This document shows positions 13,801 through 57,841 of a DNA stretch of 57,841 nt, piece by piece. The notes under the pieces are model-generated. The model saw nothing but the letters and a program-made list of their open reading frames with translations. It had not been told where the DNA came from and made no database searches. This DNA is from a virus (taxonomy: Duplodnaviria; Caudoviricetes): positions 1-57,841 of IMG/VR virus record IMGVR_UViG_3300030329_003145; one strand, written 5' to 3'. The translations under genes were made by a program, and so were the position numbers. Numbering within the stretch: the stretch's first letter is position 1; each line of letters begins with the position of its first letter.

Positions 13801-16800
13801 GCGCGTCAACTCAGCTTCTGGCTTACGGGTAATCCCCGACACATACGCATGGGTCAGTTCGTGGAGTAGCGTGTCTGCGACTCCGCGTGGGTTATACCCG
13901 TTGATATTGATCGAGATTGCGCGGGTGCCATCATCTTGAATGCGGAGTCTACCAGCATACTCTAGCCCCGTCTCATCAATCGTGAACGCAATGTCATTTA
14001 TGAAACTGGGGTTCTGGATAAGGAGTCGGGCGAGCGCAACAAGGTGGGCGTCGTAATCAGTTTCGGCGCGGTCAGACACACCAATGATTCTGCGAAGCGC
14101 CTCAAGAATAGAGTCAGGGTTTCCGGTTTCGAGGCCCAAGGCAGCAATCGCTGCAAGGTTCTCTGCTTGTACTTCCGCCCTCGTCATGCTCGTCGGCTGA
14201 GACCGGAGGTAAAGGTCGCCTGCTGCTTTTTGCACGGAAGATATGAACTCGTCTGTTTGCCCAGAGTCTGGCTCTTGACCGAGCAATTCGCGCAAACGGT
14301 CGTTTATTACCCCACGGTATACAGGGTCTGTCTTAGGGTCTCCCTCGATGGCCTGCGAAGACAGGGACATTATCTGAAGTGCCTGGCGAACCGCCGTCCC
14401 CATTTCGTATTTACCACTCTTCAAATCACGCTGGAAAGTCAGACTGGCAGAGTTGGCGCGGTTATTGCCCTGTGCCATCCACTGGACAAACAACCCCCAC
14501 GCTTCCTTGTTGGTCATCTTCGAGAAGTTGATCGAAGACGACGCATATACTTGTGACTGGATAATCTCCAAAACGTCTCTCCGCAGTGCAGGGTCTGCGG
14601 CCATCGCCGCGACGGCGTCCGACTGCATCTCCTTGATCATGTTGGAAATCTTCCTGACCGGAAGTTGTGGTAGAGCTTCCTGCGGGTAAGGCGTATACGG
14701 ATCAGAGATTTCCTCGGCGGCGGCGAAGTCGGGGTTGTTCTGCAAGTTCGACGCTTCGTCCAATGCAATAGTCGCCACATACGTCTCCTTCTGATGCTTG
14801 AGCCGCGTAGCCTGAATCTCCATATACTTCCCTGTTACTTCGCGCCCCACAGCAACGAGTGATACAGGCTCGCCCTTCATAAGGGACTCTTGTGCTCTGA
14901 GTTTCAGTTCGATCAGGGCCGTATCCCGCAGTGCGGGGGTGAGGTCACCACTGTCGAGGGTCGGGAGGAACGGGTTCAGTTCTTCGTCGGTGGATACCCG
15001 CGACATTGCTTCGTCATAAGTAATCTTCTCGTCGGGGTTGAACGGAGAAGTGATAAGCAGTTCCACCAATCCTTCTGGTGCATCCGGCTCCCCTTCTCTT
15101 GCTTCCCGAAGATCTGTAACCCTACGGATCAATGCGGACAAACCGGTGTGGTCTTCTCGCAGGTTGAGTGCGTGTTCGGCGGATGTGAGCGCGGATACAA
15201 GGCCACCGGATTCAGGGACCACGATGTCGGACACGACAAACTTGTTGCCAATCCTGGCGAACCGGAATGCAGGGTTCAGGGTGGGGGAGGTTAAAGCCTC
15301 CACCGGAACTTCAACCGGAGCCCCCTGCTCTATTAGTCCGAGCATACTAGCGGGGTCGTTATTAAACCGCCCCACGCCATTTGCGTCGATGACCGCCCTG
15401 ACCGGACCATACGAAGGCACTGAAGCTCCACCACTGGGGGTCTCTTGCGGGATGACGGGAAAACGGGCTGCAATCTGGTCGGCAATACGCTGGGTGCTCT
15501 CTTCGAGGAACTGGTCAGACAATGTCCGCACACTCACGGGTACCCCGAGTCTCCTCAACTTGGCGGCGGTAAGAATATGCGGGTAGCCACTTTCGATAAG
15601 CCGCTCGATGGCCGTTTCTTCGGCGGGTGCAACGGGCTCTTCTTCGACTTCGATTTCCTGTTTGACCCTGAATTCTTTTAAGGCCGTGATCCGGTCACGA
15701 AATGCCTGGCGTGTAAGAGCTTTAGCAGCCTCGGGGCTTACGGCGCGGCCTTCCTGCACGGCTTTATCCAATGCCTGTTGGACTGCGGGGACGGTCCCCG
15801 TGGCTGATTGCGCCTCTATGTCTCGGGACAGTTTCTGGTAGAACTCTCGTTTCTGGTTTATCTCCTTAACCTGCTCCCTGAACCGTGCTTCGACTGCCTT
15901 CGCCTCTTCGGTTCGTTCGGGGTCAATGATAATGCGGACCTTGGGGTCAGCCAGCGGCTCCAGCTTGGCTTCGACGGATTCTCCTTTCTGACCAGTAGCG
16001 AGTTCACGAACGGCTTGGTGGTCTGAATTTTCGACAGAACTGGATTCAATCGGGTTCAGCCCAAGCCCACTCATCAACGCGCCCTTGATTCTTACGGTCG
16101 CTGGGTCCGCGCCGGATACCACGGGGGTTTCTTCCGCGAGAACTTGGCTCATGGCCGACTTAATGGAAGTCGGGTTGACTGTGTCTTCGGGGAAAAGATC
16201 CAGTTGAGCTGACTCAGGAGGATTAGCTGGGCGAGAGGCGCGGAACATAGGGGGGATCGTGAGGGTTCCTGGCGCTGCTTCTTTTGCTAGGCGCTTGATC
16301 TCGGCTTTAACTTTTTGTCCGTGGACCCTGACTGCTGAGAGGGGCATCCCCGTAGTGTTGGCTACGAAACTTAAATAGTCTTGGTCACGGGTTGAACGAG
16401 TCCTCTGGGCCGTGATGTAAGCGGCTCTATCAATGTCGCTCTCAAAAAAGAGTTCAAACCTCTTTTGACCATAAGAATACCTTGGTTTAGCTCCTGCCAA
16501 ATCCCGTGGAAGTTTTGGCTCTCGCCATGTTACCGTGTCAGCATCCCACACAAATCCAGCGGGGGGTTCTGCAACCGGCTCCTCCGTAGGTTCTGCAACC
16601 GGCTCCTCCGTAGGTTCTGCAACCGGCTCCTCCGTAGGTTCTGCAACAGGTTCAGCCGCAGGTTCTGCAACAGGTTCAGCCGCAGGTTCAGCCGCAGGTT
16701 CAGCGGCAGGTTCAGCCGCAGGTTCAGCGGCAGGTTCTGCAACAGGTTCTGCAACAGGTTCAGCCCCCAACGCCTCTCTGAAATCAATAGCCGCTTTCTG

Positions 16801-27912: not shown

Positions 27913-29688
27913 ATGCATACTTACGCAATCGATTTTGAGACTTACTACGACAAGAAGTGCAGCATAAAGACCCTCGGGCCGCTCGGGTATTTTTCTCATC
28001 CAGACTTTGACGCCTACATGGTTACCGTCAAGGGGACTGATGGGACCGAATTTGTTGGACACCCTAAAGACTTCAATTGGCTTCTTCTTAACGGTAATAT
28101 AGCACTGAGCCACAACGCCGCGTTTGATGAAACCCTATATCTATATGGAATTAAACAGGGATGGTGGCCTGAAGCAAAGCCACAGGCGTGGTATTGCACG
28201 GCGGATATGGCGGCTTATTGCAGACTGCCTCGGTCGCTTAAAGGCGCGTCTAAGGCGGCTTTTAAAATAGAGGTGGATAAAACTACTCGGGACAATATGA
28301 GTGGTAAGCGGTGGGAGACCATGTCCGAGGAGTTTAAGGAAGAAGTGAGCCAATACGCACTCCAAGATGCGGAACTCTGCTTGGAACTATGGGAGGCGTT
28401 TAACGAACTATGGCCAGAGAACGAGCGGGTTATAAGCACATTGAACAGGAGGATTTGCCAGGGGGGCATCCCCATTGATACGGCGCTTCTCAAGAAGCAG
28501 CTTGAAGTGATCAATGAAAATCTTTTTGAAGCTGAAACCGCGATTCCGTGGATGGGGGAGAGGCCACTTTTGAGTAGGGCCGCGTTTGATGACGAATGTT
28601 TGAAGCAAGGTTTAGAGCCTCCTAAGAGCCTCGCGGCGGATAACCCTGAGAGCCGCAAGTGGGTTGATTACAATAGTAAGAAACACGCATGGATTAATGC
28701 GGTCCAGAACTGGAGGCGCATCAATGCCATCAAGAAAAAGGTCGAGTCGTTTGATGTGGCTACCATGCCAGATCAAAGATATTACGGGGGGTTTATGTAT
28801 TTTGGAGCACATACAGGTAGATTTAGTGGCAGTGGGGGGAACCTTAACCTTCAGAATTTACCCCGAGACGAAATGTTCGGGGTAAATTTAAGGCACCTGA
28901 TAGCTACTAAACCCGACAAAAAATTGGTGGTGGCCGATCTATCGCAGATTGAAGTTAGAACTCTATGTTGGCTTGCAAAAGACCAGGCAATGCTGAAGGA
29001 GATTGAAGAATGCGAAGACATTTACGAGGCGTTCGCAATTAGGTTTGGAAGCTGGAAAAAAGAACAGGGGGCGCTGAAGCAAGACCCAAAAATAAGGCAT
29101 CGAGTAAAGGCTATGGTGCTGGGCTGCGGTTACGGAGCAGGCAAACAAAGGTTTGCCGATATGTCAGGCATGACCCAGAAAGAGGCCGACGATGCCGTAG
29201 ACCTGTATCGGGGGTCTATGGAGGCGGTCACTAAGTTGTGGCGGGAATACAACGTGGATATAACCGGAGCATATAACCTCACCCAACAAAATATCCCAAC
29301 CCCGTTTAAAGTAGACCTGCCAAGTGGCAGGACGCTCAACTACGGGTATATTGAAGCCAATAAAGTCGAGGGGGGTCATGTGCAGTATACCTCGTATTTT
29401 CCTAAAGGCGCTAAAATGATCCCAGTCAAACTCTGGGGAGGCTTTATAGCAGAGAATGCTTCCCAGGCTTTAGCGCGGGACATTTTTAGCGATATGCTCG
29501 TCAGGATATCGGAAGCGGGGCACACGATTATTATGCACGTACACGACGAGGTCGTTGTCGAGGCAGACGCAGACAAAGCAGAGGAAGCCTTGAAAGAGAT
29601 TCTCAAGATTATGTCTACTCCCCCAGAGTGGATATCAGATATTCCTTTAGATGCAGAAGGAACAATTCTAACGCGGTATACAAAGTGA
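27913..29688 (+). CDS. polA: family A DNA polymerase with 3'-5' exonuclease, Leu762 type
   Basis: Exo I AIDFET, Exo II HNAAFD, HTGRFSG, motif A ADLSQIEVR, motif B RVKAMVLGCGYG, motif C HVHDEV. Confidence 0.93.
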   Translation: MHTYAIDFETYYDKKCSIKTLGPLGYFSHPDFDAYMVTVKGTDGTEFVGHPKDFNWLLLNGNIALSHNAAFDETLYLYGIKQGWWPEAKPQAWYCTADMAAYCRLPRSLKGASKAAFKIEVDKTTRDNMSGKRWETMSEEFKEEVSQYALQDAELCLELWEAFNELWPENERVISTLNRRICQGGIPIDTALLKKQLEVINENLFEAETAIPWMGERPLLSRAAFDDECLKQGLEPPKSLAADNPESRKWVDYNSKKHAWINAVQNWRRINAIKKKVESFDVATMPDQRYYGGFMYFGAHTGRFSGSGGNLNLQNLPRDEMFGVNLRHLIATKPDKKLVVADLSQIEVRTLCWLAKDQAMLKEIEECEDIYEAFAIRFGSWKKEQGALKQDPKIRHRVKAMVLGCGYGAGKQRFADMSGMTQKEADDAVDLYRGSMEAVTKLWREYNVDITGAYNLTQQNIPTPFKVDLPSGRTLNYGYIEANKVEGGHVQYTSYFPKGAKMIPVKLWGGFIAENASQALARDIFSDMLVRISEAGHTIIMHVHDEVVVEADADKAEEALKEILKIMSTPPEWISDIPLDAEGTILTRYTK

Positions 29689-31847
29689 CTTATAGATATA
29701 TTAAAAACCTACGAGACTCGTCGGCCCACAAATCATCCGGCGTATCCAGATCAACTAAATCGGTTCCTAGTTTCGACACAAAGGCGGCATATCGTGCTTG
29801 GTGTGCTGACGAAAAAACGGACCACATATTTTATTCTACCGCCGAGGGGAGGGCTCCATCTAAAAGGATCTCATCTGATAACCCCGTCAATCGCGTCTAC
29901 GGAATAGTTGCGGACTACGACGCACCGGTAGACTGGAACTTGGTGGACTTTAAAATTGGGACGGTTTGTAAAAACAATATGCCTACATGGCGTACGAAGA
30001 CATACTCGGGGTATATAAGACTGGTTTGGGAATTCGAGGACTCGGTCCCTATTTCGCCCGATATGTTCTCGGCGTTTTTTAAGGAGTTAAAAAATGCGCT
30101 CAACATCCATAAAGTATTCGCGGGGTTTGACGCAACATCGCTTAACGCGGCTCAATACTTTGAGCTAGGGTCTGAGTGGCACCAGACAGGGGATAAATTA
30201 TCAAGTGCTGTCGTCCAGACGGCTCTGTTAAAGGCAGCGTCAGTCTGTCCCCCTCAATCTAATGATACTGCGATCCCCATTGAGGTAGTGGCAGAAAAGG
30301 TTGGGGCGGTATACGGACACCGATGGACCGGAGATTTTGATGTGGGGTGCCGTGGGCCTTTGTTCTGGATAGATGACGGCATCGATAGGGAGGGGTGCCA
30401 GGTAGCTGAAGACGGTATGATTTGCTACAGCGACCGTGCAGGAAAGGGGTTTGCTAGTTGGCGGGATATTTTTGGAGCCGATTTTGTATCAGATTATGAG
30501 CAAAAGAAGATGGGGAGTCTCCTAGACGAGTATTGGTTTAACGGGAAGACCTTTTTTAAGCTGCTGAACAACATTGCGGTTCAGATACCGAGGGACCAGA
30601 TCCTTCTTGAACTTCGACAGATGGGGTTTAACCCGAAACAGAAAAAGGGGTCTCCATTGTCAGAGGTGGAGTCGGCGCTCCTCGTAATAAGCAATCAGAA
30701 CCGGATACACGAAATCGCCCCTGTGGTTTTCTCTAAGGACCGCATAGTAGAATGTAGCGGTAACCGAATTTTAAACACATCTACAATCGAACCCGTAGAA
30801 CCGGCGGAAGACGGTGACCCTAAGCACTGGCCTTTTCTATACGAGTGGATGCATCAACTTTTTGAGAACTCCACAGATCGGCCAACGATTGAATACTTCT
30901 TTGCGTGGCTGAAGCGGTTTTATGAAGCGGTCCTTGAACGGGAGCCGCGCCAAGGGCAGGCACTTATTCTTGTAGGGCCTACAAATAAAGGTAAAAGCCT
31001 CCTGTCAAACAGGGTAATCTCTGGGCTTGTAGGAGGGTTTTCCGATGCTTCTGATTACCTTAGTGGGCATACTAAATTCAACAAAGACCTCGGCAGGGTA
31101 GCTACCTGGGTAATTGATGACACGACAAGTGCCAGTTCTTTCCAAGACCAACGCAAAGCAACAGAATTGATAAAAAGGGCCGTGGCAAACCCTCGGATTG
31201 AGTATATGGCTAAATATGCGGACGCGCTATCTATCCCGTGGACAGGTCGCGTAGTCATGTCACTTAACATGGATGCAAACAGTTTGTCAGTGATACCGGC
31301 CCTCGATAGTAGCAACAGGGATAAGTTGATGGCGTTAAAAATACGCGATGAAGCAACCAGCAAATTTCCTCCGAATAATACACTAGAAGAAACCATATGG
31401 AGAGAGCTTCCACATTTTGGAAAATGGCTAACTGATTGGGAGGTTCCGCAGGAGATCGAGTCTTACGGACGCTTTGGAGTGGCGAGCTTTATTGACATCG
31501 CGGTCTCTTCCGCAGCTTACGACAACTCCAGTAGATCGTCAGTGGCCGAGCTTGTGGAATTTTTCTCCAAGAAATGCCGCCACCTTAATGAAGAAATGAC
31601 CCAATGGGAGGGGACGCTCACAGAATTTCAAGTTACTCTGCACGACTTTAACAGTGGGAGAAACGTAGGAATGTCCAACAACTTGGAGTTTGTAAGGCGG
31701 GGAATGTCGGCCTTGGAAGAAGCGGGCAAGGCAAACCCAAATGTCAGGCCCGTTAAATCCGTGGGGCACGGGGGAGGTAAAGTCTGGTCAATCAACATCG
31801 ATTCGCAATTCGATATTACCCCAGCGGTCGTTTCAACGGAGGGATAG
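29685..31847 (+). CDS. primase-helicase (AEP-like N-terminus, SF3/DUF5906-like P-loop C-terminus)
   Basis: GTGA overlap with polA; N-terminal ADYD and TYSGYIR; C-terminal LVGPTNKGKS, VIDD and SLN. Confidence 0.75.
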   Translation: MTYRYIKNLRDSSAHKSSGVSRSTKSVPSFDTKAAYRAWCADEKTDHIFYSTAEGRAPSKRISSDNPVNRVYGIVADYDAPVDWNLVDFKIGTVCKNNMPTWRTKTYSGYIRLVWEFEDSVPISPDMFSAFFKELKNALNIHKVFAGFDATSLNAAQYFELGSEWHQTGDKLSSAVVQTALLKAASVCPPQSNDTAIPIEVVAEKVGAVYGHRWTGDFDVGCRGPLFWIDDGIDREGCQVAEDGMICYSDRAGKGFASWRDIFGADFVSDYEQKKMGSLLDEYWFNGKTFFKLLNNIAVQIPRDQILLELRQMGFNPKQKKGSPLSEVESALLVISNQNRIHEIAPVVFSKDRIVECSGNRILNTSTIEPVEPAEDGDPKHWPFLYEWMHQLFENSTDRPTIEYFFAWLKRFYEAVLEREPRQGQALILVGPTNKGKSLLSNRVISGLVGGFSDASDYLSGHTKFNKDLGRVATWVIDDTTSASSFQDQRKATELIKRAVANPRIEYMAKYADALSIPWTGRVVMSLNMDANSLSVIPALDSSNRDKLMALKIRDEATSKFPPNNTLEETIWRELPHFGKWLTDWEVPQEIESYGRFGVASFIDIAVSSAAYDNSSRSSVAELVEFFSKKCRHLNEEMTQWEGTLTEFQVTLHDFNSGRNVGMSNNLEFVRRGMSALEEAGKANPNVRPVKSVGHGGGKVWSINIDSQFDITPAVVSTEG

Positions 31848-48334: not shown

Positions 48335-48602
48335 TTATGTCGTGGCAGGCGTCTTCAACACTCTCATCGGGGACTTGAAGCTCATCGTCGTTAACAAAGG
48401 AGCGTATGCGCTGGATTTTGTCGAGAACGCGCATCAACAACCCGTGGACCGGATGAATGCCAATCACCGTGCTGCTTTTAAAATTAGCAAACGGGTCGGT
48501 CGCGTCCTTGCCCCCAGTGTAGTCGGAGTTTTTCGTCCGCATGATGTCCTTGCAAAGTTTGCAGGTCTCATCGTGCAGGGTAAGTAGTTCTTTAGAATTC
48601 AC
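48270..48602 (-). CDS. nucleotide-modification-associated domain protein (DUF1599-like)
   Basis: KNSDY...DPFANF...RVLDKIQRI...ESVEDACHDIINYAIL signature. Confidence 0.75.
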   Translation of the reverse strand: MNSKELLTLHDETCKLCKDIMRTKNSDYTGGKDATDPFANFKSSTVIGIHPVHGLLMRVLDKIQRIRSFVNDDELQVPDESVEDACHDIINYAILAKAMLLEERASREVE

Positions 48603-50811
48603 TGTCTTCGCGGAACTCTAGCGCAGCCTTGGCGTCTCGTATAGCCATTTCCTGATCATGTTTCTTCTGCTTTAACGCCATGTCCAACTCGGCCTTCTCT
48701 TGGGCAATCTGCATCTTAACCTGATGGTCAGCCATACGCGCATCAACCTGCCCCTGCTCCGGTTCGCCACCGCCCTGCTCTTCCGCCATCTGAGCTTGAT
48801 CGCGTTGTAGCTTCTGGGCAGCTTTCATTGTGTTGTTGATCGCTTCTTCAGCGAATTGGAGAACCTGCTTCGTCTGCCCAACCAGACTTTCGAGCGCGGG
48901 GTCGCCCGCCGCCAATTGCACCGTCTGGCTGATGTGCTCGTAGAATGCCTGCAAGATGGGCAACGCTTGCATCGGGTCTGCTTCTCCGACATTTAGTTGT
49001 TCGATTAGCTGGTTAAGTGCGGGGACATGGACTTCCAAGTGAGTCCCGTGAAGTTCATTGCCCACAACGGGAACCGGCTGTCCCGCCATAAGTTGCTGGT
49101 TCTCGAAGTAGGCAATTTTAAGATCAACAGTCGGACGCTTCTCAACTTCCGCAGGAACATACCGGTCAGCCAGGTCATGGCCCACTCGGGTCGATACAAT
49201 GTCGCGGGTCAGGTTGCGGCGACCAACGTCGTCAAACTGACCACTGATTCCCTGCAACTCGCGCAACGCAACCATCCGGTTCGCATGGCTCCCGTTCCCT
49301 ATGGAACGAACAGCCTTCGTGCGGTCAACATCCAACGTCTTGATAAAATCCTTCGGGATACCACGGGCCTCGCAACGATCATAGAAATCCTTGATCGCGG
49401 TGTCGGGCTTCTTCGTAGTAACAACCCGCCGCACGACCTCACGCAACAGTCGGTTCCAGCTAGCATAGAACAAATTCAGGCTGGCCCCAGACAGACGGGT
49501 CGATACGTCCATGTCTGCCACGACCTGCATCTGATTCCGGTATGGTGAGCCCTGTTGCGGCCCATACGTGCTCACCGTGTCCGTGTTCAACTGCAACTGC
49601 TGCGTGAGATCTTGCAAGGCCGGTTGAACAGCAGTGCCAAGATTCGGGATAGCCTTCTCAACAATCTTCACGTTAGGCGACATAACCGCGTATGCGCCGT
49701 AATACGTGAACTGTAATTCGTCCAATGACCGCTGGTTCTCAGGCTGGATCATCACCGCCGAGGCCAACATCGCCCCGTCGATCTGCTGACACCGCAACCG
49801 GTTGCTCGTCTGGACATGAGAAAAGATGCGCTGACCAAGGCCACGGATGGAATGATATGTCCCATTACTGCCAACACCGTAAGTAAACATCACGTATGCC
49901 TGCTCGGCCTTGGCGTAGCGGGATACCTTCTTGTAAAGGAAATCCTTCGGGGTGTCCTCCGCGCAGATATAATGACTCACACTACCATCCATCTCCTTGA
50001 CCCAGAAATGAAGGACCGACACAGAAGGGTTCTGGACCCCCATGTGTAAGTCGTTGTTCTTCATCTCTGCCTGGATCGTCTCGTAGTTGTCATACTCAGT
50101 GCGCTGGTTCGTGCGGACGTTCTTCTTAATCACACGCTTCACCTCCTCAACATTCCAGCCCACCTTCTTGGCAGCCGCAGGATTCTTGATGTAGCCATGC
50201 AATTCATGCAGCAGGTAGTTCCGGCGACCAATAGCAACGTCAATCGCTTCCTCGCTGGAGGGTGTCTGTCGAGGAATCAGGATGTCGGTGAAACCGCCAA
50301 CCCGAAAACGCCAGTCGTCAGGCGAATCAAAATAAGCCACTGCCACGCCGTGCTTAATGAAGGTCGTGCAAAGACGAAGGTAGGCGCTATGAAACTCAGG
50401 CCACCCACGCATCAGGTGCGTCAGTTCTTCCGCAACGATTTCTTCCGCCGGTTGTACTTCGCTCGCTTGGCCCTGAGTTCCCTTAACTTCAACAAGTCTT
50501 TCCAGTGAAGAATAAAGGTCAACGTAAGCACTAAGACTAATATCCAAAAGTCGTTGGGCATCTCCAAAATTCAGGTTGGTTTTGAGCCCCTGCCCGCTAA
50601 TAGCCAGATTTGAAGCGTTATACGGAGCGGCTCCGTCGAACATCGCATCAATCCTGGCGCGGTTAACCGCAGACTTCTCATCGGCCCCGCGAAGAGTGGC
50701 AAAAATTGCCAACGCACTCTTCACATCCTTTAGCCGCGTCTCCACAGGCTTCCCTTTGTCGTCAAGGGAGCCCAAATCCAAATTGTCAATATCAAGCGGG
50801 CGGTCGCTCAT
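48592..50811 (-). CDS. portal protein
   Basis: About 740 aa heading the head module, with a Gln-rich C-terminal coiled coil; start moved to ATG 50811, 7 nt after TTGACT-N17-TATCAA. Confidence 0.75.
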   Translation of the reverse strand: MSDRPLDIDNLDLGSLDDKGKPVETRLKDVKSALAIFATLRGADEKSAVNRARIDAMFDGAAPYNASNLAISGQGLKTNLNFGDAQRLLDISLSAYVDLYSSLERLVEVKGTQGQASEVQPAEEIVAEELTHLMRGWPEFHSAYLRLCTTFIKHGVAVAYFDSPDDWRFRVGGFTDILIPRQTPSSEEAIDVAIGRRNYLLHELHGYIKNPAAAKKVGWNVEEVKRVIKKNVRTNQRTEYDNYETIQAEMKNNDLHMGVQNPSVSVLHFWVKEMDGSVSHYICAEDTPKDFLYKKVSRYAKAEQAYVMFTYGVGSNGTYHSIRGLGQRIFSHVQTSNRLRCQQIDGAMLASAVMIQPENQRSLDELQFTYYGAYAVMSPNVKIVEKAIPNLGTAVQPALQDLTQQLQLNTDTVSTYGPQQGSPYRNQMQVVADMDVSTRLSGASLNLFYASWNRLLREVVRRVVTTKKPDTAIKDFYDRCEARGIPKDFIKTLDVDRTKAVRSIGNGSHANRMVALRELQGISGQFDDVGRRNLTRDIVSTRVGHDLADRYVPAEVEKRPTVDLKIAYFENQQLMAGQPVPVVGNELHGTHLEVHVPALNQLIEQLNVGEADPMQALPILQAFYEHISQTVQLAAGDPALESLVGQTKQVLQFAEEAINNTMKAAQKLQRDQAQMAEEQGGGEPEQGQVDARMADHQVKMQIAQEKAELDMALKQKKHDQEMAIRDAKAALEFREDSEF

Positions 50812-50899
50812 TGTCAAGTTGATACCTTTTTGAAGGGAATTAGTCAATTATGTATATTTATCTGGACACACAACAACGCCCCCATTACAAGGGACGCCT

Positions 50900-51109
50900 A
50901 TGAAATGGAACCTCATCGCAGTAAGTGTATCCTGCATCCTGTTCGGTGTGTCGTGCTCCACGGCTGATCTGGGAGGTCAAGTACCCCTCCCATTCACATC
51001 ACCGTCTACTTCAGCCAAACTAGACCTCGAACTTCGGCCCATGCCGCCAAAGTTCTGCATAGGCTTAGATTTGGTGCCCACCGAAGAGGAACCCACTACC
51101 GAGAAGTAA
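50900..51109 (+). CDS. small lipoprotein
   Basis: MKWNLIAVSVSCILFGVSC lipoprotein-type signal; promoter TGGACA-N17-TACAAG 8 nt upstream. Confidence 0.65.
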   Translation: MKWNLIAVSVSCILFGVSCSTADLGGQVPLPFTSPSTSAKLDLELRPMPPKFCIGLDLVPTEEEPTTEK

Positions 51110-51114
51110 TTCTC

Positions 51115-51174
51115 ATGGCTTACGGTAAACCAAAGCCAACAAAACCTACCAAGCCTAAACCAAAAGGCAGGTAA
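51115..51174 (+). CDS. 19-aa Lys/Pro-rich peptide
   Basis: MAYGKPKPTKPTKPKPKGR; repeated amino acids use varied synonymous codons. Confidence 0.5.
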   Translation: MAYGKPKPTKPTKPKPKGR

Positions 51175-51179
51175 TCCTT

Positions 51180-51256
51180 AACCCGCTCCAGGACGTAGCC
51201 CGTAGCCCAATTAAGGGCCTAGCAAGGACGGTAGCAAATCTTGGAGCGGGTTTTTT
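51180..51256 (+). terminator. terminator-like multi-stem hairpin
   Basis: AACCCGCTCCAGGA/TCTTGGAGCGGGTT stem followed by a T run; inner CCGT/ACGG and GCCC/GGGC stems. Confidence 0.65.
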
Positions 51257-51295
51257 GTGTCGATTAAGCCGACATATACACAATACGTGTCGATT

Positions 51296-51760
51296 CTACC
51301 CCCAAACATCGACACGTAGCTTGTCCACCCGAACGCGAACCTGCTTGCCCTCGTTGTTCCGAAGCCTAGCCGTATCGTGGCCTTGATGCTCACGTGTATT
51401 TACAACGTGTATACGGCCTGCGTTTGGCCCCCGCTCAAAGGGCTCAATGCAATATATCAGGCCGTAGTGAGTCACCGCATACCGGCTGAACTCAGGGATG
51501 ATCCGCGCACCCTCATTCCCCAACACGAAATCAAGAGTCAGTTCCAGGGGTGCAGGAGTAGCGATTCGATCATGGCGAAACATGAATCGGGTGCCATCGG
51601 TGCGGGTTACGGGGGTCCGTATAGCCCCGCCGACCCACTGCGGAGCCAGCGCACGGCCTGATTTCAGGTTCATAACGAGACCGGTTGACTCGCACAGGGC
51701 GTAGTGGTCCGTCTCGGGAATTAACACGAAACCATCGGGAATTTGCAAATCGCTACTCAA
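51296..51760 (-). CDS. tandem NUMOD4-like protein without an HNH domain
   Basis: Two IP....Y.....G.(V/I) units (LIPETDHYALCESTGLV and IIPEFSRYAVTHYGLI). Confidence 0.5.
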   Translation of the reverse strand: MSSDLQIPDGFVLIPETDHYALCESTGLVMNLKSGRALAPQWVGGAIRTPVTRTDGTRFMFRHDRIATPAPLELTLDFVLGNEGARIIPEFSRYAVTHYGLIYCIEPFERGPNAGRIHVVNTREHQGHDTARLRNNEGKQVRVRVDKLRVDVWG

Positions 51761-51865
51761 AAAGTATTTCCTATACTATATGCCTTTTATTTCGAAATAC
51801 AAGTCATACTTATATTAGAATACTTTTCATTTTGGGTTTTGCATAAACACGCACCTACCGTAACC

Positions 51866-52138
51866 CTACGCTTGTTCAACGCCTTTGTTTTCCTCGGCTT
51901 CTTTACGCTCCCGCTCCTCCTTGATCTTCTGATACCGCTCGGCCCGTCGCTTGAGTAGCCGCGCACGATTCTTGAGGTAGTAGGCGCGGTTGTATGCCAG
52001 GCGTTTCTCTATTTTTTCTGGGTCAACCGCTTCATCTATCTGCCTCTTCCGGTTGATCCGGTCTTTGTTTTTCTTGTAATATTCGCGCTGATACCTGCAT
52101 CGCGCTTCCTTGTTCCTTGCGTAATAAGTTTCGTCCAT
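51866..52138 (-). CDS. basic helical protein with YY.KN(K/R) repeats
   Basis: Start at ATG 52138, 7 nt after TTGACA-N16-AATAAT. Confidence 0.65.
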   Translation of the reverse strand: MDETYYARNKEARCRYQREYYKKNKDRINRKRQIDEAVDPEKIEKRLAYNRAYYLKNRARLLKRRAERYQKIKEERERKEAEENKGVEQA

Positions 52139-52253
52139 CAGCGCAATTATTGACCGCAGTGGTATTTTGTCAAATTTTTTCTCACGCACCGATATATACA
52201 TACTGAGAAAGAGAGAAAAAGTGGCCACCCTACGGGTGGCGTCTATTTTAATA

Positions 52254-52330
52254 CGCTCCGCGCTCCGCGCTCCGCGCTCCGCGCTCCGCGCCCCGCGCCC
52301 CGCGCCCCGAATCCCGAATCCCGCGCCCCG
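52254..52330 (+). repeat. array of 11 heptamers ending in CCG
   Basis: CGCTCCG x5, CGCCCCG x3, AATCCCG x2, CGCCCCG x1. Confidence 0.9.
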
Positions 52331-52538
52331 CTCCGCTGTTCAAGTGAACACCTAACCCTGCGCCCTGTTCACTTGAACACTGCACCCTTGAACAGGAAAC
52401 CGGATGCAGGATGCGGGGGGCCGGAATCGGGGGGCGGGGCCGGGGTTGCTGTCACCCCGTATTGACAATGTGAATACGAAAGATAGTTCAATTCTTTTCT
52501 CGACTCGAACGGGGGTTTGCCCTTATATTGGGGGCGCT

Positions 52539-52958
52539 ATGAAAGCAGCATATATTAGACTAGTCGGCCGCAATCGCGGAGTTGAAAGAGTGTGGCTAGA
52601 GGGCGAGATGCTCCTCGCCAACGGATGGAACAACGGGGACCGCTTCAACGTTGAGTTCATCCCCCACGATGGTTACACGGGGTATGGAGCTCTTGTGTAT
52701 ACAAAGCACCCCGAGGGGAAGCGCAAGGTTGCGGGGACCGTTGACCGTCCCATTCTGGATACGAACACCGCCAAACTGTCCAAGGTTTGCGGGTTCTCCA
52801 CGGGGGACCGGTTGCCCGTTGTAGTTTCCCCTGAGCGGGTAGTTGTTGGGGAAGGGGTGAACGTCGAAAACGTCGAGCGGGTAGCTGAGATAGTGAAGGA
52901 TAGCGGGAAAACTCAGATATGGGAGCTCACCGAAACCGAATCGGTTAGAATACGGTAA
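52539..52958 (+). CDS. AbrB/SymE-like swapped-hairpin protein resembling the N-terminal domain of plasmid/ICE C5 methyltransferases
   Basis: GRNRGVERVWLEG..L..NGW..GDRF...GKRKVAG...RPILD; start at ATG 52539 after TCGACT-N18-TATATT. Confidence 0.5.
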   Translation: MKAAYIRLVGRNRGVERVWLEGEMLLANGWNNGDRFNVEFIPHDGYTGYGALVYTKHPEGKRKVAGTVDRPILDTNTAKLSKVCGFSTGDRLPVVVSPERVVVGEGVNVENVERVAEIVKDSGKTQIWELTETESVRIR

Positions 52959-52984
52959 CCCGCACCCCTCACCCCTTACCCTTC

Positions 52985-53021
52985 ACCCCGCTTCCCTTAA
53001 CAGGGGGCGGGGTTTTCTTTT
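52985..53021 (+). terminator. intrinsic terminator
   Basis: ACCCCGCTTCCCT/AGGGGGCGGGGT hairpin followed by TTTCTTTT. Confidence 0.75.
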
Positions 53022-53562
53022 GCCCCTATCCTGTCCGGTTTGCCTGGCGCATTTGCCTGGCAACCTGCGGGGGTGTTCAGCAGAACAAGTGTTCACTTGC
53101 GCCCGTGTTCAAGTGAACAGCGGATTGAAAAAAGCGGGGAAACTGGCGGAAAGATATTGACAAATCCCCCCGCTTGTGAGCGGAAACAAATTTCCCCGCA
53201 TTGGCCCATATTCGCCCGCTACAGGGCGGGGATTCTTTCGCAGGGTGGTATTCAATAATTTCCTGCAAAGCTCACACGGGCAATCCTCAGAGGCTGTTTT
53301 TTCCTGGTCCCTGCACCCTTTTGCCTGGCTCCTGATTTGTGAACAAAAACCCTCGAAATAGATTGACGAAAGGCCAAACCTTTGCTCCGGCCCACATCCG
53401 CCCCCTACGGGGCCGGACCCCCTTTCCCTAGTACCGAGGGGCGATTTCCTTTCGGACGCAATAGAGCGTTTCGCCCCTAAAAAATAGGGGTTTGCGGGGG
53501 TTGTGGAATAATTCAATTATTTCTCGACAGGGGCGGGGGGTTTCCCCTATTATAAGGGCGAT

Positions 53563-54453
53563 ATGAAACAAAGCGTGTATGAAAAGTTGAATGCCGGACT
53601 TCTGGCAGAATTAGAAAAGGCAATTGAATCCGATACCGTCGCCCCGTGGGAAAAGCCTTGGCAGGGAGGAAGGCTCCCGACAAGGTTTGCAACCGGCACC
53701 CCGTACCGTGCTTTCAATGCCATTTATCTTTCCCTTCGCATAGGGGCGGAAGGTTGGCAAAGCTCCACCTTCATTACGTACAAGGCAGCCCAACAAGCGG
53801 GGGGTAATGTCAGGAAGGGGGAAAAGGGTTCCACCGTGGAAGTCTGGCGCCCCGCCCGTCGCAATCGCAAAGCAGTAGCGGAAGGGGAAGAGAGGAAACC
53901 CGCCAGAATGTTTATGGGTTGCCATACCGTTTTTAATCTAGACCAGTGTGACGGGGTGCAAGATCCCTGGAAAACGGGGGAAGAGCGGGAGCATTCCCCG
54001 ATTGAAGAAGCGGAAAAGATTCTTGCCGGTATGGTGAACCCTCCCGCCCTTACCCACGGGGAACCCCGTGCATACTACGCACCAGTAGAGGACAGGGTGA
54101 ACATGCCCCGCCCCGAGCTTTTCGACTCTGGCGAGGCTTACTACGCAACCCGATTCCATGAGGAAATCCACGGGACCGGTCATGCTTCCCGCCTCAATCG
54201 CGATTCCCTCACCCGTCTGACAGGATTCGGGTCGCATGAATATTCCAAGGAAGAATTGGTAGCGGAGTTTGGCGCTTCCCTGCTTTGTGGAATCACGGGG
54301 ATTGAAACCCGCAAGACCCGAGAGAATTCCCTAGCATATCTTAAAAATTGGCTTGGCCGGTTGCGGAAGGATACTTCCCTGGCTGTCGAGGCAAGCCGCC
54401 TGGCGCAGAAAGCGGTTGACCATATCCTTGGCACAACTTTCGAGAGTGAATAG
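53563..54453 (+). CDS. ardC: ArdC-family antirestriction protein (ssDNA-binding domain + zincin)
   Basis: PWEKPW, TYKAAQQAGGNVRKGEKG, VFNLDQ, YY.P.EDRVNMP, FHEEIHGTGH, FGSHEYSKEELVAE. Confidence 0.9.
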   Translation: MKQSVYEKLNAGLLAELEKAIESDTVAPWEKPWQGGRLPTRFATGTPYRAFNAIYLSLRIGAEGWQSSTFITYKAAQQAGGNVRKGEKGSTVEVWRPARRNRKAVAEGEERKPARMFMGCHTVFNLDQCDGVQDPWKTGEEREHSPIEEAEKILAGMVNPPALTHGEPRAYYAPVEDRVNMPRPELFDSGEAYYATRFHEEIHGTGHASRLNRDSLTRLTGFGSHEYSKEELVAEFGASLLCGITGIETRKTRENSLAYLKNWLGRLRKDTSLAVEASRLAQKAVDHILGTTFESE

Positions 54454-54527
54454 AGAGAACAGGGGGCGGGGGAAATGTCTTGAACAAATCCCCCGCCCCT
54501 GTCACAATACCTAACGATTAAAACAGC

Positions 54528-54779
54528 ATGAACTACAACGGAATCTTTGGATACTATAACCCCACCACAAGGACAGGGGAGATATATGACGGGCGAAAAG
54601 CAAAGCGGGACAGGCAAGCGGGATTGCCCTGTTTAGTCCTTCCCGCCCCCCTTGTCACTTTGTCAGGGGTGACACAAGCGGAATTTGAAACCCGCTTGCA
54701 ATCGGAAATCAGTCTGGCGGGAGTAGAACAGGAAGCGGAATTTGAAACCCGCCTGAAAGAGGAAAGGGGGGATGCATGA
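54528..54779 (+). CDS. hypothetical protein with an internal duplication
   Basis: AEFETRL occurs twice; 20-bp direct repeat at 54676 and 54733. Confidence 0.6.
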   Translation: MNYNGIFGYYNPTTRTGEIYDGRKAKRDRQAGLPCLVLPAPLVTLSGVTQAEFETRLQSEISLAGVEQEAEFETRLKEERGDA

Positions 54780-55663
54780 CCGTCACGAAAAAGCTCGCCT
54801 TGAAAGCGGCCCGCGAACTCATCGCGGGCGAAACTAAAACCGCTCGCAAGATTGTGGCAGCGCACCCCACGGGCGGGGTGCAATCTTGGGCCGGAGTCTT
54901 TCGCAAGCTAATAGCGCAAGCGGAAGCAATCGAATCCGGCACCCTGTCCCGCGCTTCCTTTTCCATTTTCGCCCGTGGGAATTCCAAGCTCCCATTTTGG
55001 AGCTTTTCCAGTATGGCAATTCTGGACTGCCCCGGAAGAGGCGAGTGCGCTGCCTGGTGCTACAGCCTGAAAAGCTGGCGCAATCCGAATGCCCTTGGCC
55101 GACAGGTTTCCAATTCCATGCTGTTAAGAGCACAAGCGGGGAGGGATTTGATTGCGGCGGAATTCTCCCGCCTGAAAACGGAAACCGTCAGGCTGTACGT
55201 CGATGGGGATTTCCACAGTAAAGAAAACTTAAAGTTCTGGATGGATTTAATTAAGACCCGTCCCGACATTCAAGTCTACGGGTATTCTAAAAGCTGGGTT
55301 GAATTTGTAGCCCTCCACCTGTCCGGTTATGCCTGGCCAGACAATTACCTTTTGAACCTGTCGGGGGGTTCCCGATTTGCAAAGCAGGAAGGATTGCGGC
55401 AGGCAATGGCAACCCTGCCAATCGTGCGGGGTGAATTCCTCGCCGTGCCAGTGGACCGGCACCACCTTAAAAATCATTCCTACCAGTCCCGCCGGAATGC
55501 AGGATTCAAGGACTACGCAAAGCAGGTCCGCGCTAACGCGGGGCAACGGGTATTTGTTTGCAGTGGGGATTGTGGAGATTGCATTGTTATTGGCGGAAAG
55601 CTCCAAGCTGCGTGTGGATCTGAAGCGATGCGCGGGGTGACAATCGCAATTGGAACCCATTAA
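54776..55663 (+). CDS. GP88-like Cys-cluster (radical-SAM-like) protein
   Basis: GNSKLP..SFS, CPGRGECAAWCY, VRLYVDGDF, YGYSKS, LNLS and C-terminal CSGDCGDC...C. Confidence 0.7.
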   Translation: MTVTKKLALKAARELIAGETKTARKIVAAHPTGGVQSWAGVFRKLIAQAEAIESGTLSRASFSIFARGNSKLPFWSFSSMAILDCPGRGECAAWCYSLKSWRNPNALGRQVSNSMLLRAQAGRDLIAAEFSRLKTETVRLYVDGDFHSKENLKFWMDLIKTRPDIQVYGYSKSWVEFVALHLSGYAWPDNYLLNLSGGSRFAKQEGLRQAMATLPIVRGEFLAVPVDRHHLKNHSYQSRRNAGFKDYAKQVRANAGQRVFVCSGDCGDCIVIGGKLQAACGSEAMRGVTIAIGTH

Positions 55664-55677
55664 CCCTCATTAACAAT

Positions 55678-55770
55678 ATGAAATTATCAACCTTTCTTTT
55701 AGCCGTATTCTTCACCGTGTTCGCAATTCATATTGCCGTCAATCTCCTCGCCTGGCTCCTGTCCCGATGA
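55678..55770 (+). CDS. 30-aa single-TM peptide
   Basis: MKLSTFLLAVFFTVFAIHIAVNLLAWLLSR; ATGA overlap with the next gene. Confidence 0.55.
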   Translation: MKLSTFLLAVFFTVFAIHIAVNLLAWLLSR

Positions 55771-56108
55771 ATATAAGCGATATTTTAGCCCGTGACGGTA
55801 TCCATTGCGAGGATACCGTGCGCGTTTATATAGGCCCACGGGAATACTATCATGCGGAATTGTGGATTCCCGATGCCGAGTGGATAGCGGACCCGCCGGA
55901 AGAGTGGGATGGTGAAACGCCAGAGGACCCGATGGGGGATCACCCCGTGGACGAGATGGTGATGGTTTCGAGGACAGGACAGGCGGGGACATGGGAGCCT
56001 GTTCATTTCCGCGCTTTGGAGCGGGAGCGGGAAGAGAGATGGACAAGGGAAGACTGGGAAGACTGGCGGGCGGACGACCACCGGAACGATGGGGAGGACT
56101 ACCCGTGA
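55767..56108 (+). CDS. highly acidic hypothetical protein
   Basis: 113 aa, Asp/Glu/Trp-rich. Confidence 0.7.
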   Translation: MNISDILARDGIHCEDTVRVYIGPREYYHAELWIPDAEWIADPPEEWDGETPEDPMGDHPVDEMVMVSRTGQAGTWEPVHFRALEREREERWTREDWEDWRADDHRNDGEDYP

Positions 56109-56142
56109 ACCCCTACCGGTTGCCTGGCTGCGGGTGCAGAGC

Positions 56143-56254
56143 ACCTGCGGACCTGCGGACCTGCGGACGAAAACCTGCGGGCGAAACCTGCGGACCTGCG
56201 GACGAAAACCTGCGGGCGAAAAAAAAGATAAGAAATTGATTGAACAACCTGCGG
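56143..56254 (+). repeat. ACCTGCGG octamer array (8 copies) running into a promoter
   Basis: Copies at 56143, 56151, 56159, 56173, 56186, 56194, 56208 and 56247; TTGAAC(56240)-N17-TAGCTT, 6 nt to ATG 56275. Confidence 0.9.
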
Positions 56255-56274
56255 ATCTGAGGTAGCTTTGAACC

Positions 56275-56577
56275 ATGCCAATACTAGCAGCAACCGAGAA
56301 ACGGTGGAACGACCAGTCTGATCTGGTTCTGTCCTCGCCCGTATTGTGGGAGTTCAATCGCAAGCACTTCATAATTGAGGTGCGGGGTCTGGAGACTACA
56401 GAATTGACCTGCATCTACGTCACGATAGGCACCCTGTGGGGGTGCGGAACGATCTGGAAGAACAGTTGTTCAGTGAGTGATTTGTGCGCCTGTCTGAAGA
56501 AGACATTTGAGACGATTGATGCCAATAACGATGAGCCTGTCGCGGCCCCTGATGGGTGGGAAGTTTGGGAAGACTAA
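56275..56577 (+). CDS. hypothetical protein
   Basis: 100 aa; leaderless-type promoter upstream. Confidence 0.7.
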   Translation: MPILAATEKRWNDQSDLVLSSPVLWEFNRKHFIIEVRGLETTELTCIYVTIGTLWGCGTIWKNSCSVSDLCACLKKTFETIDANNDEPVAAPDGWEVWED

Positions 56578-56582
56578 GAGAT

Positions 56583-56801
56583 ATGGATACGACCACACAT
56601 CATTACGAACCCTACGTCAGGAATCTCATTGTCGAGATCAACGGGACCGCATACGGGGATATCATCCGAAAGGTTTCGCCTGGCAAACATCATACGGCGA
56701 CCGTCAATGGTCGCAGGACAATTGTAAAAGATCCGCATGGTGCGGCGACCGTGGAAGTTCTTTCCCTTCCGCGTGATTTAGATAGACAAGGATACGAATA
56801 A
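56583..56801 (+). CDS. hypothetical protein
   Basis: ATG at 56583; TAATG overlap with the next gene. Confidence 0.6.
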   Translation: MDTTTHHYEPYVRNLIVEINGTAYGDIIRKVSPGKHHTATVNGRRTIVKDPHGAATVEVLSLPRDLDRQGYE

Positions 56802-57094
56802 TGAAAACAGCAGAACACGAATTCCCCATGCCGTTGATCCACATGAACGGCAATTCACGGGAGACACTTACCGAGCAGTACGAGAAAGCGGAATACGTTT
56901 TGCGGTGCTTGCAGCAGGAGTTCAATCAAATCGATTTTCATCCACGGGACTACTATCCGTTGGACGATGATCCATACAGCAACGAGTCATTCAACAAGGC
57001 ACTTGCTGAGAGGCACAAGATTCTGGAGGCACTCGATGTCGTACGGAATTACTTGGAGAAACACATCGAACACCTTCACGAAGATGACCACTGA
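56801..57094 (+). CDS. hypothetical phage protein
   Basis: PLIHMNGNS...FHPRDYYP motif; 97 aa. Confidence 0.75.
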   Translation: MKTAEHEFPMPLIHMNGNSRETLTEQYEKAEYVLRCLQQEFNQIDFHPRDYYPLDDDPYSNESFNKALAERHKILEALDVVRNYLEKHIEHLHEDDH

Positions 57095-57281
57095 AGATAT
57101 CAAGAAACAGATCAATCACTACCGGTATCGTCGCGCCGAGTTGGAGGACGAGATGGTCGATCTGGAGAAGAAGGACGGGTGGGCTTGTCACCCCGAGCAG
57201 ACCCAATGGACCCAAGACAAACTGGATGCCGTGAACACCATCCTCAGAAACCTCAACGAAGATCTGGAATGCCTGAACTAG
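57084..57281 (+). CDS. small coiled-coil protein
   Basis: ATG at 57084. Confidence 0.6.
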   Translation: MTTEDIKKQINHYRYRRAELEDEMVDLEKKDGWACHPEQTQWTQDKLDAVNTILRNLNEDLECLN

Positions 57282-57841
57282 AACAGATCCCCGTCCTTGG
57301 GGACGACAATACTGAGCTACAGGTTTGCAGCTATTTGAAGTGGTTGTGGCGTAGTCCCTTCCGCTATCACCTTGACGATGACCTGAAGGATATCGTGTGG
57401 AGTGGGCTGGACAAGCATCCGAGTGACGAGATCCTTGATCGCCTGGCTACCAATTTGGAGAGTGCCTACCAGTTTGCGGAGGCTACATACCCCAATGACA
57501 AGGATTGGGTGTGGGATCGCTACGCCCTCACCCTTGACCCTGCGACCTTCAGCCTTGGAGACAAACCGGACTGTATTGTCTTGAGCGGGTATCACGATCC
57601 GACCGTGCGGTGGAACGGATGGCACTGTCCGTACTTTACGAAGGAGGTTGCGGACAAGATCGTCGATCACTTTGCGGACCCTGCCATTCTCCGGTACGAC
57701 GAGGGCAACGATGTCTACGTCTACTACAACGAAAACATGGATGAGACCGACTACTATGAGCCTGTCGAGATCATCGCACCTGATGGCATCAGGAAGGTCT
57801 ACCCAATCGGATCATGGTTCTGGACCTGGGAGGAAGTACGC
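57269..57841 (+). CDS. hypothetical protein, open at the window end
   Basis: Translated by hand: 191 codons from MPELEQ to WFWTWEEVR with no stop; contains RWNGWHCPYFT. Confidence 0.7.
   Translation, partial: MPELEQIPVLGDDNTELQVCSYLKWLWRSPFRYHLDDDLKDIVWSGLDKHPSDEILDRLATNLESAYQFAEATYPNDKDWVWDRYALTLDPATFSLGDKPDCIVLSGYHDPTVRWNGWHCPYFTKEVADKIVDHFADPAILRYDEGNDVYVYYNENMDETDYYEPVEIIAPDGIRKVYPIGSWFWTWEEVR

Follow-up and report, generated by a model that had tools for sequence, protein, structure and literature searches.

Palindromic box arrays matching verrucomicrobial lexA operators bracket the first early gene of a marine phage

We identified two clusters of a 14-bp palindrome, TGTTCNNNNGAACA, that bracket the first early gene of the marine phage record IMGVR_UViG_3300030329_003145 and that match operators located in front of lexA in part of the Verrucomicrobiota. 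The record is a single linear IMG/VR entry of 57,841 bp, rated about 95% complete, and was analysed over its full length, here called the window; marine metagenomes of five studies contain DNA of this phage. We predict that both clusters are operator arrays for a host LexA of the Verrucomicrobiota form, a prediction drawn from sequence comparison to which we give an even chance. The phage probably recruits in this manner the SOS sensor of its host. The boxes are given below together with the early open reading frame (ORF) that they bracket; L136-L138 are metagenome contigs that were found with a profile of the first early protein (92, 72 and 69% protein identity) and that have the same layout.

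52337..52350: box 1 of cluster 1, perfect, TGTTCAAGTGAACA; the same 14-mer lies 16 nt before lexA in genome G026 (L132)
52366..52379: box 2 of cluster 1, perfect, TGTTCACTTGAACA, the reverse complement of box 1; identical across the window and L136-L138
52381..52394: degenerate box of cluster 1, TGCACCCTTGAACA, 2 mismatches, with a weak left and a perfect right arm; 15 bp after box 2
53074..53087: box 3 of cluster 2, perfect, TGTTCAGCAGAACA; retained in L138
53090..53103: degenerate box of cluster 2, TGTTCACTTGCGCC, 3 mismatches, with the left arm alone perfect; 16 bp after box 3
53106..53119: box 4 of cluster 2, perfect, TGTTCAAGTGAACA; 16 bp after the degenerate box and the sole cluster-2 box in L137
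52539..52958, plus strand: first early ORF, 139 amino acids, bracketed by both clusters

The pattern TGTTCNNNNGAACA has exactly four perfect matches in the window, none of them outside the two clusters. By chance 0.03 such sites are expected: among 100 dinucleotide-preserving shuffles the highest count was one, and 0 shuffles reached four. A control pattern read backward has 0 matches in the whole virus record, against 4 for the box. The perfect pairs are spaced 29 bp (cluster 1) and 32 bp (cluster 2) from start to start. An earlier note on this DNA, made from the letters alone, had described four perfect palindromes in two pairs with these spacings and none elsewhere, accompanied by adjacent degenerate sites, and had placed all of them between genes. 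The pattern count bears this out, the degenerate sites being those at 52381-52394 (2 mismatches) and 53090-53103 (3 mismatches), and by our own gene calls both clusters lie outside ORFs. When the degenerate box is counted, cluster 2 has a strict 16-bp period, with starts at 53074, 53090 and 53106. The arms are actually 6 bp long, TGTTCA-NN-TGAACA. With up to two mismatches allowed, 37 sites are present in the window compared to 24.8 expected, so that just the two clusters stand out.

The boxes are maintained in close relatives. Cluster 1 in L136-L138 consists of five sites, whose starts are 15, 16, 29 and 15 bp apart. In a four-way alignment of these contigs with the window, which are close sequences with 87% mean column identity, the seven consensus (strong) arms are variable in 0 of 35 columns, compared to 65 of 305 elsewhere in the region (P ~0.0002). 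Variable columns number 4 of 20 in the spacers and 3 of 15 in the weak arms. At one site all four spacer bases have changed and both arms are kept. The degenerate boxes follow the same pattern: the right arm of the box at 52381 is invariant in all four sequences and its left arm is variable, and the box at 53090 is retained in L138 with one spacer change. Among four marine runs, variants read from contigs fall around the arms and none within them, the sole variant inside a box being 53079 A>G in the spacer of box 3. Invariant arms with free spacers are the signature of a dimeric protein reading two 5-bp arms, and the alignment demonstrates, for these sequences, purifying selection on the arms of the phage boxes while the spacers drift. 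Copy number changes by whole units. Box 1 of the window is itself a fusion product, in which a 31-bp deletion (two repeat units) relative to L136-L138 merged two sites into a perfect one, and cluster 2 of L137 carries an analogous 32-bp unit deletion; each of these deletions leaves a perfect box.

TGTTC-N4-GAACA is reportedly the LexA operator of Verrucomicrobia, as Erill and colleagues are said to have described in 2016. We tested this attribution on genomes, with searches centred on the phyla of an Opitutae metagenome-assembled genome (MAG; G001) and a Blastopirellula MAG (G002), both of which contain relatives of the phage portal. For the Verrucomicrobiota we took the best 30 of 51 lexA-scoring places in 61 genomes and sought the box within 250 nt upstream; for the Planctomycetota we took the best 30 of 45 such places in 41 genomes. 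In these best 30 verrucomicrobial lexA loci a perfect box is present at 2 and a box with at most one mismatch at 9, whereas in the best 30 of the Planctomycetota a box with at most one mismatch occurs at 0. The two perfect boxes, TGTTCACTTGAACA and TGTTCAAGTGAACA, are identical to phage boxes 1, 2 and 4. At the two loci concerned (G026 and G047) the match includes the sixth arm base and the AG/CT centre and covers 14-16 nt.

The distribution of the box within single genomes agrees with this role. In the 4.5 Mb of G026 the perfect box is found just twice, before lexA and at the start of a radical-SAM gene, and the 14-mer of phage box 2 is both this radical-SAM site and the lexA-proximal site of G047 (L128). 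Radical-SAM genes are counted as part of the SOS regulon in passages of PMC8565304 and PMC7739468. G050 has a perfect site 28 nt upstream of a RecA-fold gene that adjoins lexA. Tandem perfect pairs are present in 2 of 401 Verrucomicrobiota genomes (G150 and G231), against 0 for a reversed control, and both pairs lie directly before the lexA ATG with a 16-bp period. Phage cluster 2 shares this period, and cluster 1 of the relatives has spacings of 15 or 16 bp. Judging from these loci, part of the Verrucomicrobiota does use TGTTC-N4-GAACA as an operator in the lexA promoter, and the attribution of the motif to LexA of this phylum, on which the earlier note had relied, is upheld for that part. 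The phage sites, at the level of sequence, are shown to be non-random and identical to natural lexA operators in both sequence and tandem geometry.

The phage arrays and the lexA operators have in common the 14-bp palindrome, the 16-bp tandem period, constrained arms and a free spacer. They differ in placement and number. Host sites lie approximately 10-40 nt from the lexA start codon with one or two per promoter, and a host genome has about 2-6 perfect sites. In contrast, the phage carries four perfect and two weak sites (7-8 sites in relatives), arranged as two arrays 100-400 bp from promoter-like sites. In one group of lexA promoters (L099, L111-L118) the second half-site is either TGTTCAC, forming a direct repeat with a 16-bp period, or TGAACAG, which is inverted; the promoters are otherwise alignable. 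This flipping of a half-site fits the direct-repeat recognition that, as stated in a passage of PMC7739468, LexA evolved in some lineages.

Hints as to the host come from MAG binning, which is weak evidence. The Opitutae MAG G001 contains four contigs with DNA similarity to the window, two of them covering the same genes. Its own lexA promoter has a one-mismatch or direct-repeat variant of the box and no perfect palindrome. G001 and G002 both belong to the Planctomycetes-Verrucomicrobia-Chlamydiae (PVC) group. No DNA similarity was found between the window and G026, G047 or G050. We infer that the host is a verrucomicrobium. A chance match of a phage-specific operator to one published motif would be plausible where many windows are scanned. 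It is made much less plausible by three points taken together: the independent appearance of Verrucomicrobiota in the binning of relatives, the extension of the match to the centre and to the sixth base of the arm, and the shared tandem period.

The boxes are located at a point where transcription diverges, with leftward genes starting from about 52140 and rightward genes from about 52540, and with structural genes on one side and early genes on the other. Features that define this arrangement are as follows.

52146..52173, minus strand: leftward sigma-70-like promoter site, TTGACA-N16-AATAAT, 11/12 positions; 7 nt before the ATG at 52138, leaderless-like
52500..52529, plus strand: promoter-like site, TCGACT-N18-TATATT; 9 nt before the ATG of the first early gene; conserved in L136-L138
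52985..53013, plus strand: terminator-like hairpin of 11 pairs with a T-rich tail; 61 bp before cluster 2; conserved in L137 and L138
53563..54453, plus strand: ArdC-like anti-restriction gene (phrog_7245 at 1.7e-70; PF08401, PF18818), the next early gene past cluster 2

Cluster 1 has the leftward promoter-like site (52173-52146) on one side and the first early ORF (52539-52958) on the other, and cluster 2 is located between the terminator-like hairpin of that ORF and the ArdC-like gene. A 49-nt promoter-like repeat is common to the 52500 site and to 53520-53568, directly before the ATGs of both early genes, with -35 hexamers at 52500 and 53524. A bare TTGACA follows cluster 2 by 38 bp and has no -10 hexamer. 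The promoter scan was a simple consensus scan, by which promoters may go unrecognised. The earlier statement that the boxes lie more than 100 bp from predicted promoters is true for the repeats before both ATGs, with 106 bp between cluster 1 and the first of them and 405 bp between cluster 2 and the second. No box overlaps a promoter-like site, and simple occlusion of a promoter is therefore unlikely.

In the mechanism that we propose, LexA dimers would sit side by side with a 15-16-bp period on arrays that bracket the first early transcription unit, which may be close to the entering end of the genome. Two modes can be envisaged. LexA could act as a roadblock or architectural element that damps the flow from the first unit into the early region until the LexA level falls. 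Alternatively, the arrays could constitute a high-affinity sink for LexA as phage DNA replicates. We rank the two modes as about equal. That LexA occupies the phage sites, and that its occupation matters, is what we infer from the comparisons described above.

The gene content of the window gives the phage a lytic appearance. Scans against PHROGs and Pfam of 45 larger and 20 small ORFs, many of them without a family, recovered no integrase, repressor or partition families, so temperate or plasmid functions were not found. The same record, about 95% complete, contains no match to a LexA or LexA_DNA_bind domain, a point in favour of recruitment of the host protein. The earlier note had proposed, as one of two options, that host LexA gates early transcription as an SOS-coupled lytic decision made without CI. 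This proposal lacks its premises, as no box overlaps a promoter and there is no sign of a temperate or plasmid lifestyle. The broader interpretation of the boxes as LexA sites fares better: the motif, the likeness in arms and period, the selection on the arms and the Opitutae binning speak in its favour, and the missing promoter overlap and the placement of the nearest relative in a Blastopirellula MAG speak against it. Binding by a phage-encoded protein, which the earlier note had named as a refuting outcome, is still a serious rival.

Several further observations weigh against LexA as the binding protein. The perfect palindrome is found at just 2 of the 30 verrucomicrobial lexA loci, and many members of the phylum may not use it. 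The nearest relative of the window is in the Blastopirellula MAG G002 (Planctomycetota), where one contig has 87% DNA identity and 96% identity over the C-terminal part of the portal, and G002 has no excess of the motif (2 sites versus 8 for a control). The link to a verrucomicrobial host that the earlier note presupposed is thus supported by the relatives binned in the Opitutae MAG, and is called into question by this nearest relative and by the 0 of 30 lexA loci of its phylum. Placement is also unfavourable, in that the boxes lie outside the promoter-like sites by the distances given above. In addition, for a phage that looks lytic, repression by LexA in healthy cells would be without obvious benefit.

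Other points on this side come from the wider phage family. A search with the portal-like protein (gene at 48592-50847, minus strand) retrieved 68 related viral loci with 64-96% identity, on contigs of mostly 50-65 kb. A perfect box is present in just 2 of these 68. Across 69 loci (1.18 Mb) sites with at most one mismatch are at the level of chance, 38 compared to approximately 35 expected. Conservation of a single box throughout the family was considered and is rejected, except in L041, which has a perfect box at the homologous place alongside a different palindrome of its own; a looser search of 52 loci was also near chance. L028, the closest relative that has the same gene order, has, in the position of cluster 1, four direct repeats of GTGGAAC, and its first early gene is 53% identical to that of the window. 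Moreover, many relatives repeat a lineage-specific palindrome of their own 4-18 times in the early region, for example AACAACTCAGTTGTT, TAACAAGAGCTTGTTA, GTATAGTTGGTTATAC and GTTAACGGGYGTTAAC. This diversity indicates a region prone to lineage-specific elements, in which the mere presence of a palindrome array is a weaker argument.

We also scanned all viral contigs for tandem perfect boxes and found them at 62 loci of 40 contigs (L179-L240). Two control palindromes of like composition are also found in tandem, at 31 loci (30 contigs) and 18 loci (17 contigs), and the excess is modest. A chance match in so large a scan is thus not negligible. Protein similarity to the window was present at just 3 of the 62 loci, and no neighbouring protein family is shared between them, which counts in favour of LexA.

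The diverse repeats of the family suggest a different explanation for the boxes, in which they are this lineage's version of the early-region palindromes, acting as strand-specific hairpin elements in RNA or single-stranded DNA or as recombination cassettes, and match the LexA operator by chance. We consider this very unlikely. Relatives carry their 4-18 palindromes in the same region, with pairs of copies flanking the first early gene, the control palindromes occur in tandem in 17-30 viral contigs, and boxes 1 and 2 of the window can form a 14-bp stem (z = -3.96). A hairpin after the ArdC-like gene has an apex, TGT-CTTGAACA, that also recalls the box. However, the window contains just four copies, in mixed orientation and without extended outer stems, pairing between boxes 1 and 2 is lost in L136-L138, and cluster 2 folds no better than shuffled sequences (z = -1.06). 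Conserved arms with free spacers correspond to a dimeric protein site and not to a stem-loop, and L041 has the perfect box in addition to its own different palindrome. Finally, the match to lexA operators and the hints of a PVC host would form an unexplained double coincidence.

Hairpin elements of this type have precedents in the promoter/stem-loop (PeSL) cassettes of T4-type phages and in the hairpin promoters of N4. The early hairpins of the relatives resemble these in being one per gene and conserved at the apex, whereas the boxes in the window are few, unextended and of mixed orientation. In relatives such as L090, L063, L036, L087, L076 and L066 the palindrome forms the apex of a hairpin whose outer stems covary, with one hairpin per early gene. 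These hairpins follow closely on stop codons, with the next ATG about 35-45 nt further on, and nearly all share one orientation. They might be signals specific to one strand, for example sites of RNA processing, hairpin promoters or recombination cassettes.

A second alternative is that the boxes are bound by the product of the gene that they bracket. The first early protein may be a tandem DNA-binding protein of the AbrB/MraZ/SymE type, although all signals are weak. PF08845 (SymE_toxin), an AbrB-fold family, has matches in 8 of 12 members of the first-early-protein family, with a best E value of 0.0064, below the Pfam cut-off. The predicted structure of the 139-amino-acid protein (predicted local distance difference test score, pLDDT, 63) contains two beta-beta-alpha-beta-beta units. 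Its best fold match is MraZ (Z 4.2, root-mean-square deviation 2.9, 84 aligned residues), followed by AbrB, SpoVT, MazE and B3 domains. Foldseek against the PDB yielded nothing for this protein at E <= 0.001, and as a single query the protein had no relative in viral contigs. An N-terminally extended version of the ORF (52404-52958) was ruled out, as indels in L137 break the frame.

According to this alternative, the boxes would be operators of the first early protein, an AbrB/MraZ-like oligomer that shuts the early unit off, for instance by bridging the clusters 740 bp apart, and the likeness to LexA operators would be coincidence or mimicry. We regard it as unlikely. Both clusters bracket the gene, sites far from a promoter suit a bridging oligomer better than LexA, the family and fold matches point in the same direction, and an Atlas lead score of 0.82 was obtained. 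Homologues of the protein are confined to array-bearing loci, and the arrays differ with the protein (TGTTC/GAACA in L136-L138 at 76-92% identity, GTGGAAC with the 53% identical protein of L028), which is a single contrast. On the other hand, the pLDDT of 63, the Z of 4.2, the null result with Foldseek and the E value of 0.0064 are all below reliable thresholds. This proposal leaves the 14-16 nt identity with lexA operators, the 16-bp period and the Opitutae association unexplained. L041 has a perfect box and no homologue of the first early gene within 22 kb of sequence, and the arrays of unrelated phages have no such gene nearby: SymE, AbrB and LexA families were found in 0 of 135 ORFs near tandem-box arrays. 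The symE gene of E. coli is itself regulated by LexA, and a SymE-like gene located behind LexA boxes fits the LexA reading as well.

Regulators of the MraZ/AbrB type (PDB 1n0e, 9sz7) bind arrays of short repeats beside their own gene. The phage may have a similar arrangement, a small protein with two units resembling swapped hairpins that is encoded beside 3-5 closely spaced boxes. It differs in that the fold assignment is weak (Z 4.2) and that the phage sites are 14-bp palindromes with a 15-16-bp period, whereas MraZ boxes repeat in direct orientation at intervals of about one helical turn. If the AbrB-like phage protein binds the boxes in place of LexA, the arrays would represent operator mimicry of a global regulator of the host.

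A third alternative is that the clusters are iterons of a replication origin, consisting of an ori and a second cis element in the manner of satellite phage P4, that are bound by the DUF5906 primase-helicase encoded at 29628-31847. The P4 origin (NC_001609) has type 1 repeats, TGTTCACC and GGTGAACA, in both orientations and in two clusters (ori and crr), and this octamer shares the half-site of the boxes. The two systems also have in common that the clusters are separated and lie outside promoters, and in the window they are at the point of transcription divergence; the window encodes a family A DNA polymerase along with the DUF5906 protein. Among the papers searched, none contains TGTTCACC. 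We consider this explanation highly improbable. Similarity to the P4 alpha protein is insignificant (best BLASTP E value 0.041 over 40 residues), the initiators are unrelated, the P4 units are 8-mers with a period of approximately 10-11 bp in contrast to 14-bp palindromes at 15-16 bp, the flanks of the phage clusters are GC-rich and not AT-rich, and the host of P4 is E. coli. Boxes are absent from 66 of the 68 relatives, whose loci stop short of the primase-helicase gene.

A few temperate phages and plasmids of Proteobacteria and Firmicutes are known examples of mobile elements that make use of host LexA. Nothing comparable is known to us for phages that infect Verrucomicrobiota, of which very few are in culture, although the literature was not surveyed systematically. 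The closest parallel to the predicted LexA arrays is GIL01 of Bacillus thuringiensis, in which, according to PMC6182141, host LexA together with the phage protein gp7 maintains lysogeny, and LexA-gp7 on tandem boxes controls early and late promoters. GIL01 is without a dedicated repressor and uses host LexA, and the same is predicted for the present phage, in which no repressor was found. However, the boxes of GIL01, a temperate phage, are inside its promoters P1 and P3, whereas the boxes described here are outside promoter-like sites in a phage for which temperate functions were not found. The host phylum and the motif differ as well. The record contains no LexA match, and no protein resembling gp6, a LexA homologue, or gp7 was identified, although no search was aimed at gp7-like proteins. 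Literature on LexA decoys was not found beyond the GIL01 paper.

If the arrays bind LexA, they would provide a sequence-based host marker for an abundant family of uncultured marine phages of approximately 60 kb, and they would represent a lytic-looking phage wired to the SOS system. Operators that lie off the promoters and exceed the number of the host's own sites may then block the path of transcription, shape the DNA or soak up the repressor. In the most specific form of this idea, a virulent marine phage of Verrucomicrobia carries LexA arrays of consensus strength, outside any promoter, on the first DNA to enter the cell. There being few such sites on the host chromosome, incoming and replicating phage DNA would capture the LexA pool, resulting in SOS induction without damage or in a sensor for early gene flow. 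We consider this version unlikely. Were it true, the dense TGTTCA-NN-TGAACA arrays in dozens of unrelated viral contigs would reflect a common strategy among phages of the phylum.

The position of the arrays with respect to the genome end depends on a conserved module to the left of cluster 1. Additional sequence features surrounding this cluster are the following.

52224..52240: conserved hairpin that ends in GGTGGCGT (52235-52243), candidate genome end or pac signal
52254..52335: array of C-rich 7-bp repeats to the left of cluster 1 (CGCTCCG / CGCCCCG / CCCGAAT)
52400..52450: G-rich mirror tract to the right of cluster 1, recognised by reading the sequence; largely conserved in L136-L138

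The hairpin is part of a family module of approximately 75 nt at 52160-52243, TTGTCAAATTTTTTC...ATATATA...AAAAA...C(C/G)GTGGCGT, which is present in 13 of 63 loci by a strict pattern. The TTGTCAAATTTTTT motif of the leftward promoter site is likewise found in 13 of 63 relatives by a strict pattern. Contigs of several relatives stop 3-385 nt past the conserved module or hairpin. The module is a candidate for the genome terminus or a packaging signal, in which case the boxes would be located within the first 100-150 bp of the DNA. In three marine runs the C-rich array has two extra units (+14 bp), and contigs break there. Comparable tracts with other units are present in L028, L041 and L096. The mirror-image GC-rich tracts around cluster 1 appear prone to G-quadruplex formation.

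Promoter-like hexamers end 7-10 nt before start codons in the phage (52138-52173, minus strand; 52500-52541 and 53524-53565, plus strand). The same short distance is observed in the Opitutae-like lexA promoters L099 and L111-L118. This arrangement suggests leaderless mRNAs in the phage and the candidate host alike.

In addition to the genes described above, PHROGs and Pfam scans identified a large terminase, an exonuclease, a RuvC-like resolvase, an amidase endolysin, a C5 methylase and a GP88 protein. The portal-like protein has no match among 50,697 isolated phage records, and the family A polymerase has matches among isolated phages only below 28% identity. Relatives of the ArdC-like protein were found at 27 loci with at most 43% identity and were uninformative. 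No tRNAs are present in the window. An ORF of 4966 amino acids at 4831-19731 (minus strand) has a Pfam match to PT-repeat only, no PHROG, and PDB matches of low complexity only. The PDB, PHROG and Pfam comparisons found no RNA polymerase domain in it and gave no support to the idea of an N4-like virion RNA polymerase that would act on hairpin promoters.

Several other repeats and potential structures are present in the early region. Repeats of TTGCCTGGC occur as pairs at 53040-53062, just upstream of cluster 2, and again at 53321 and 56120; in L137 and L138 they are also found just upstream of the early promoter-like site. The 440 nt from 53120 to 53560 contain no convincing ORF. Two TTGAC(A/G) motifs are present there, and after each come a hairpin and a T-rich tail. 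The stretch is conserved in L137 and L138 and may encode small RNAs. A search of Rfam gave no match at E <= 0.1 across 51000-57841. The hairpin after the ArdC-like gene (54455-54500) is long and GC-rich, and its TGT-CTTGAACA apex is like the box minus 3 nt. At 56142-56262, just before an ORF at 56275, there are approximately ten ACCTGCGG units, including a perfect 35-nt tandem duplication, which may be another array of binding sites or an origin.

Among the viral contigs with tandem boxes, one of 179 kb has dozens of sites between small ORFs, and another of 81.8 kb carries eight pairs with a period of 17 bp. Three boxes are located at the start of an HTH_3 gene in L199.

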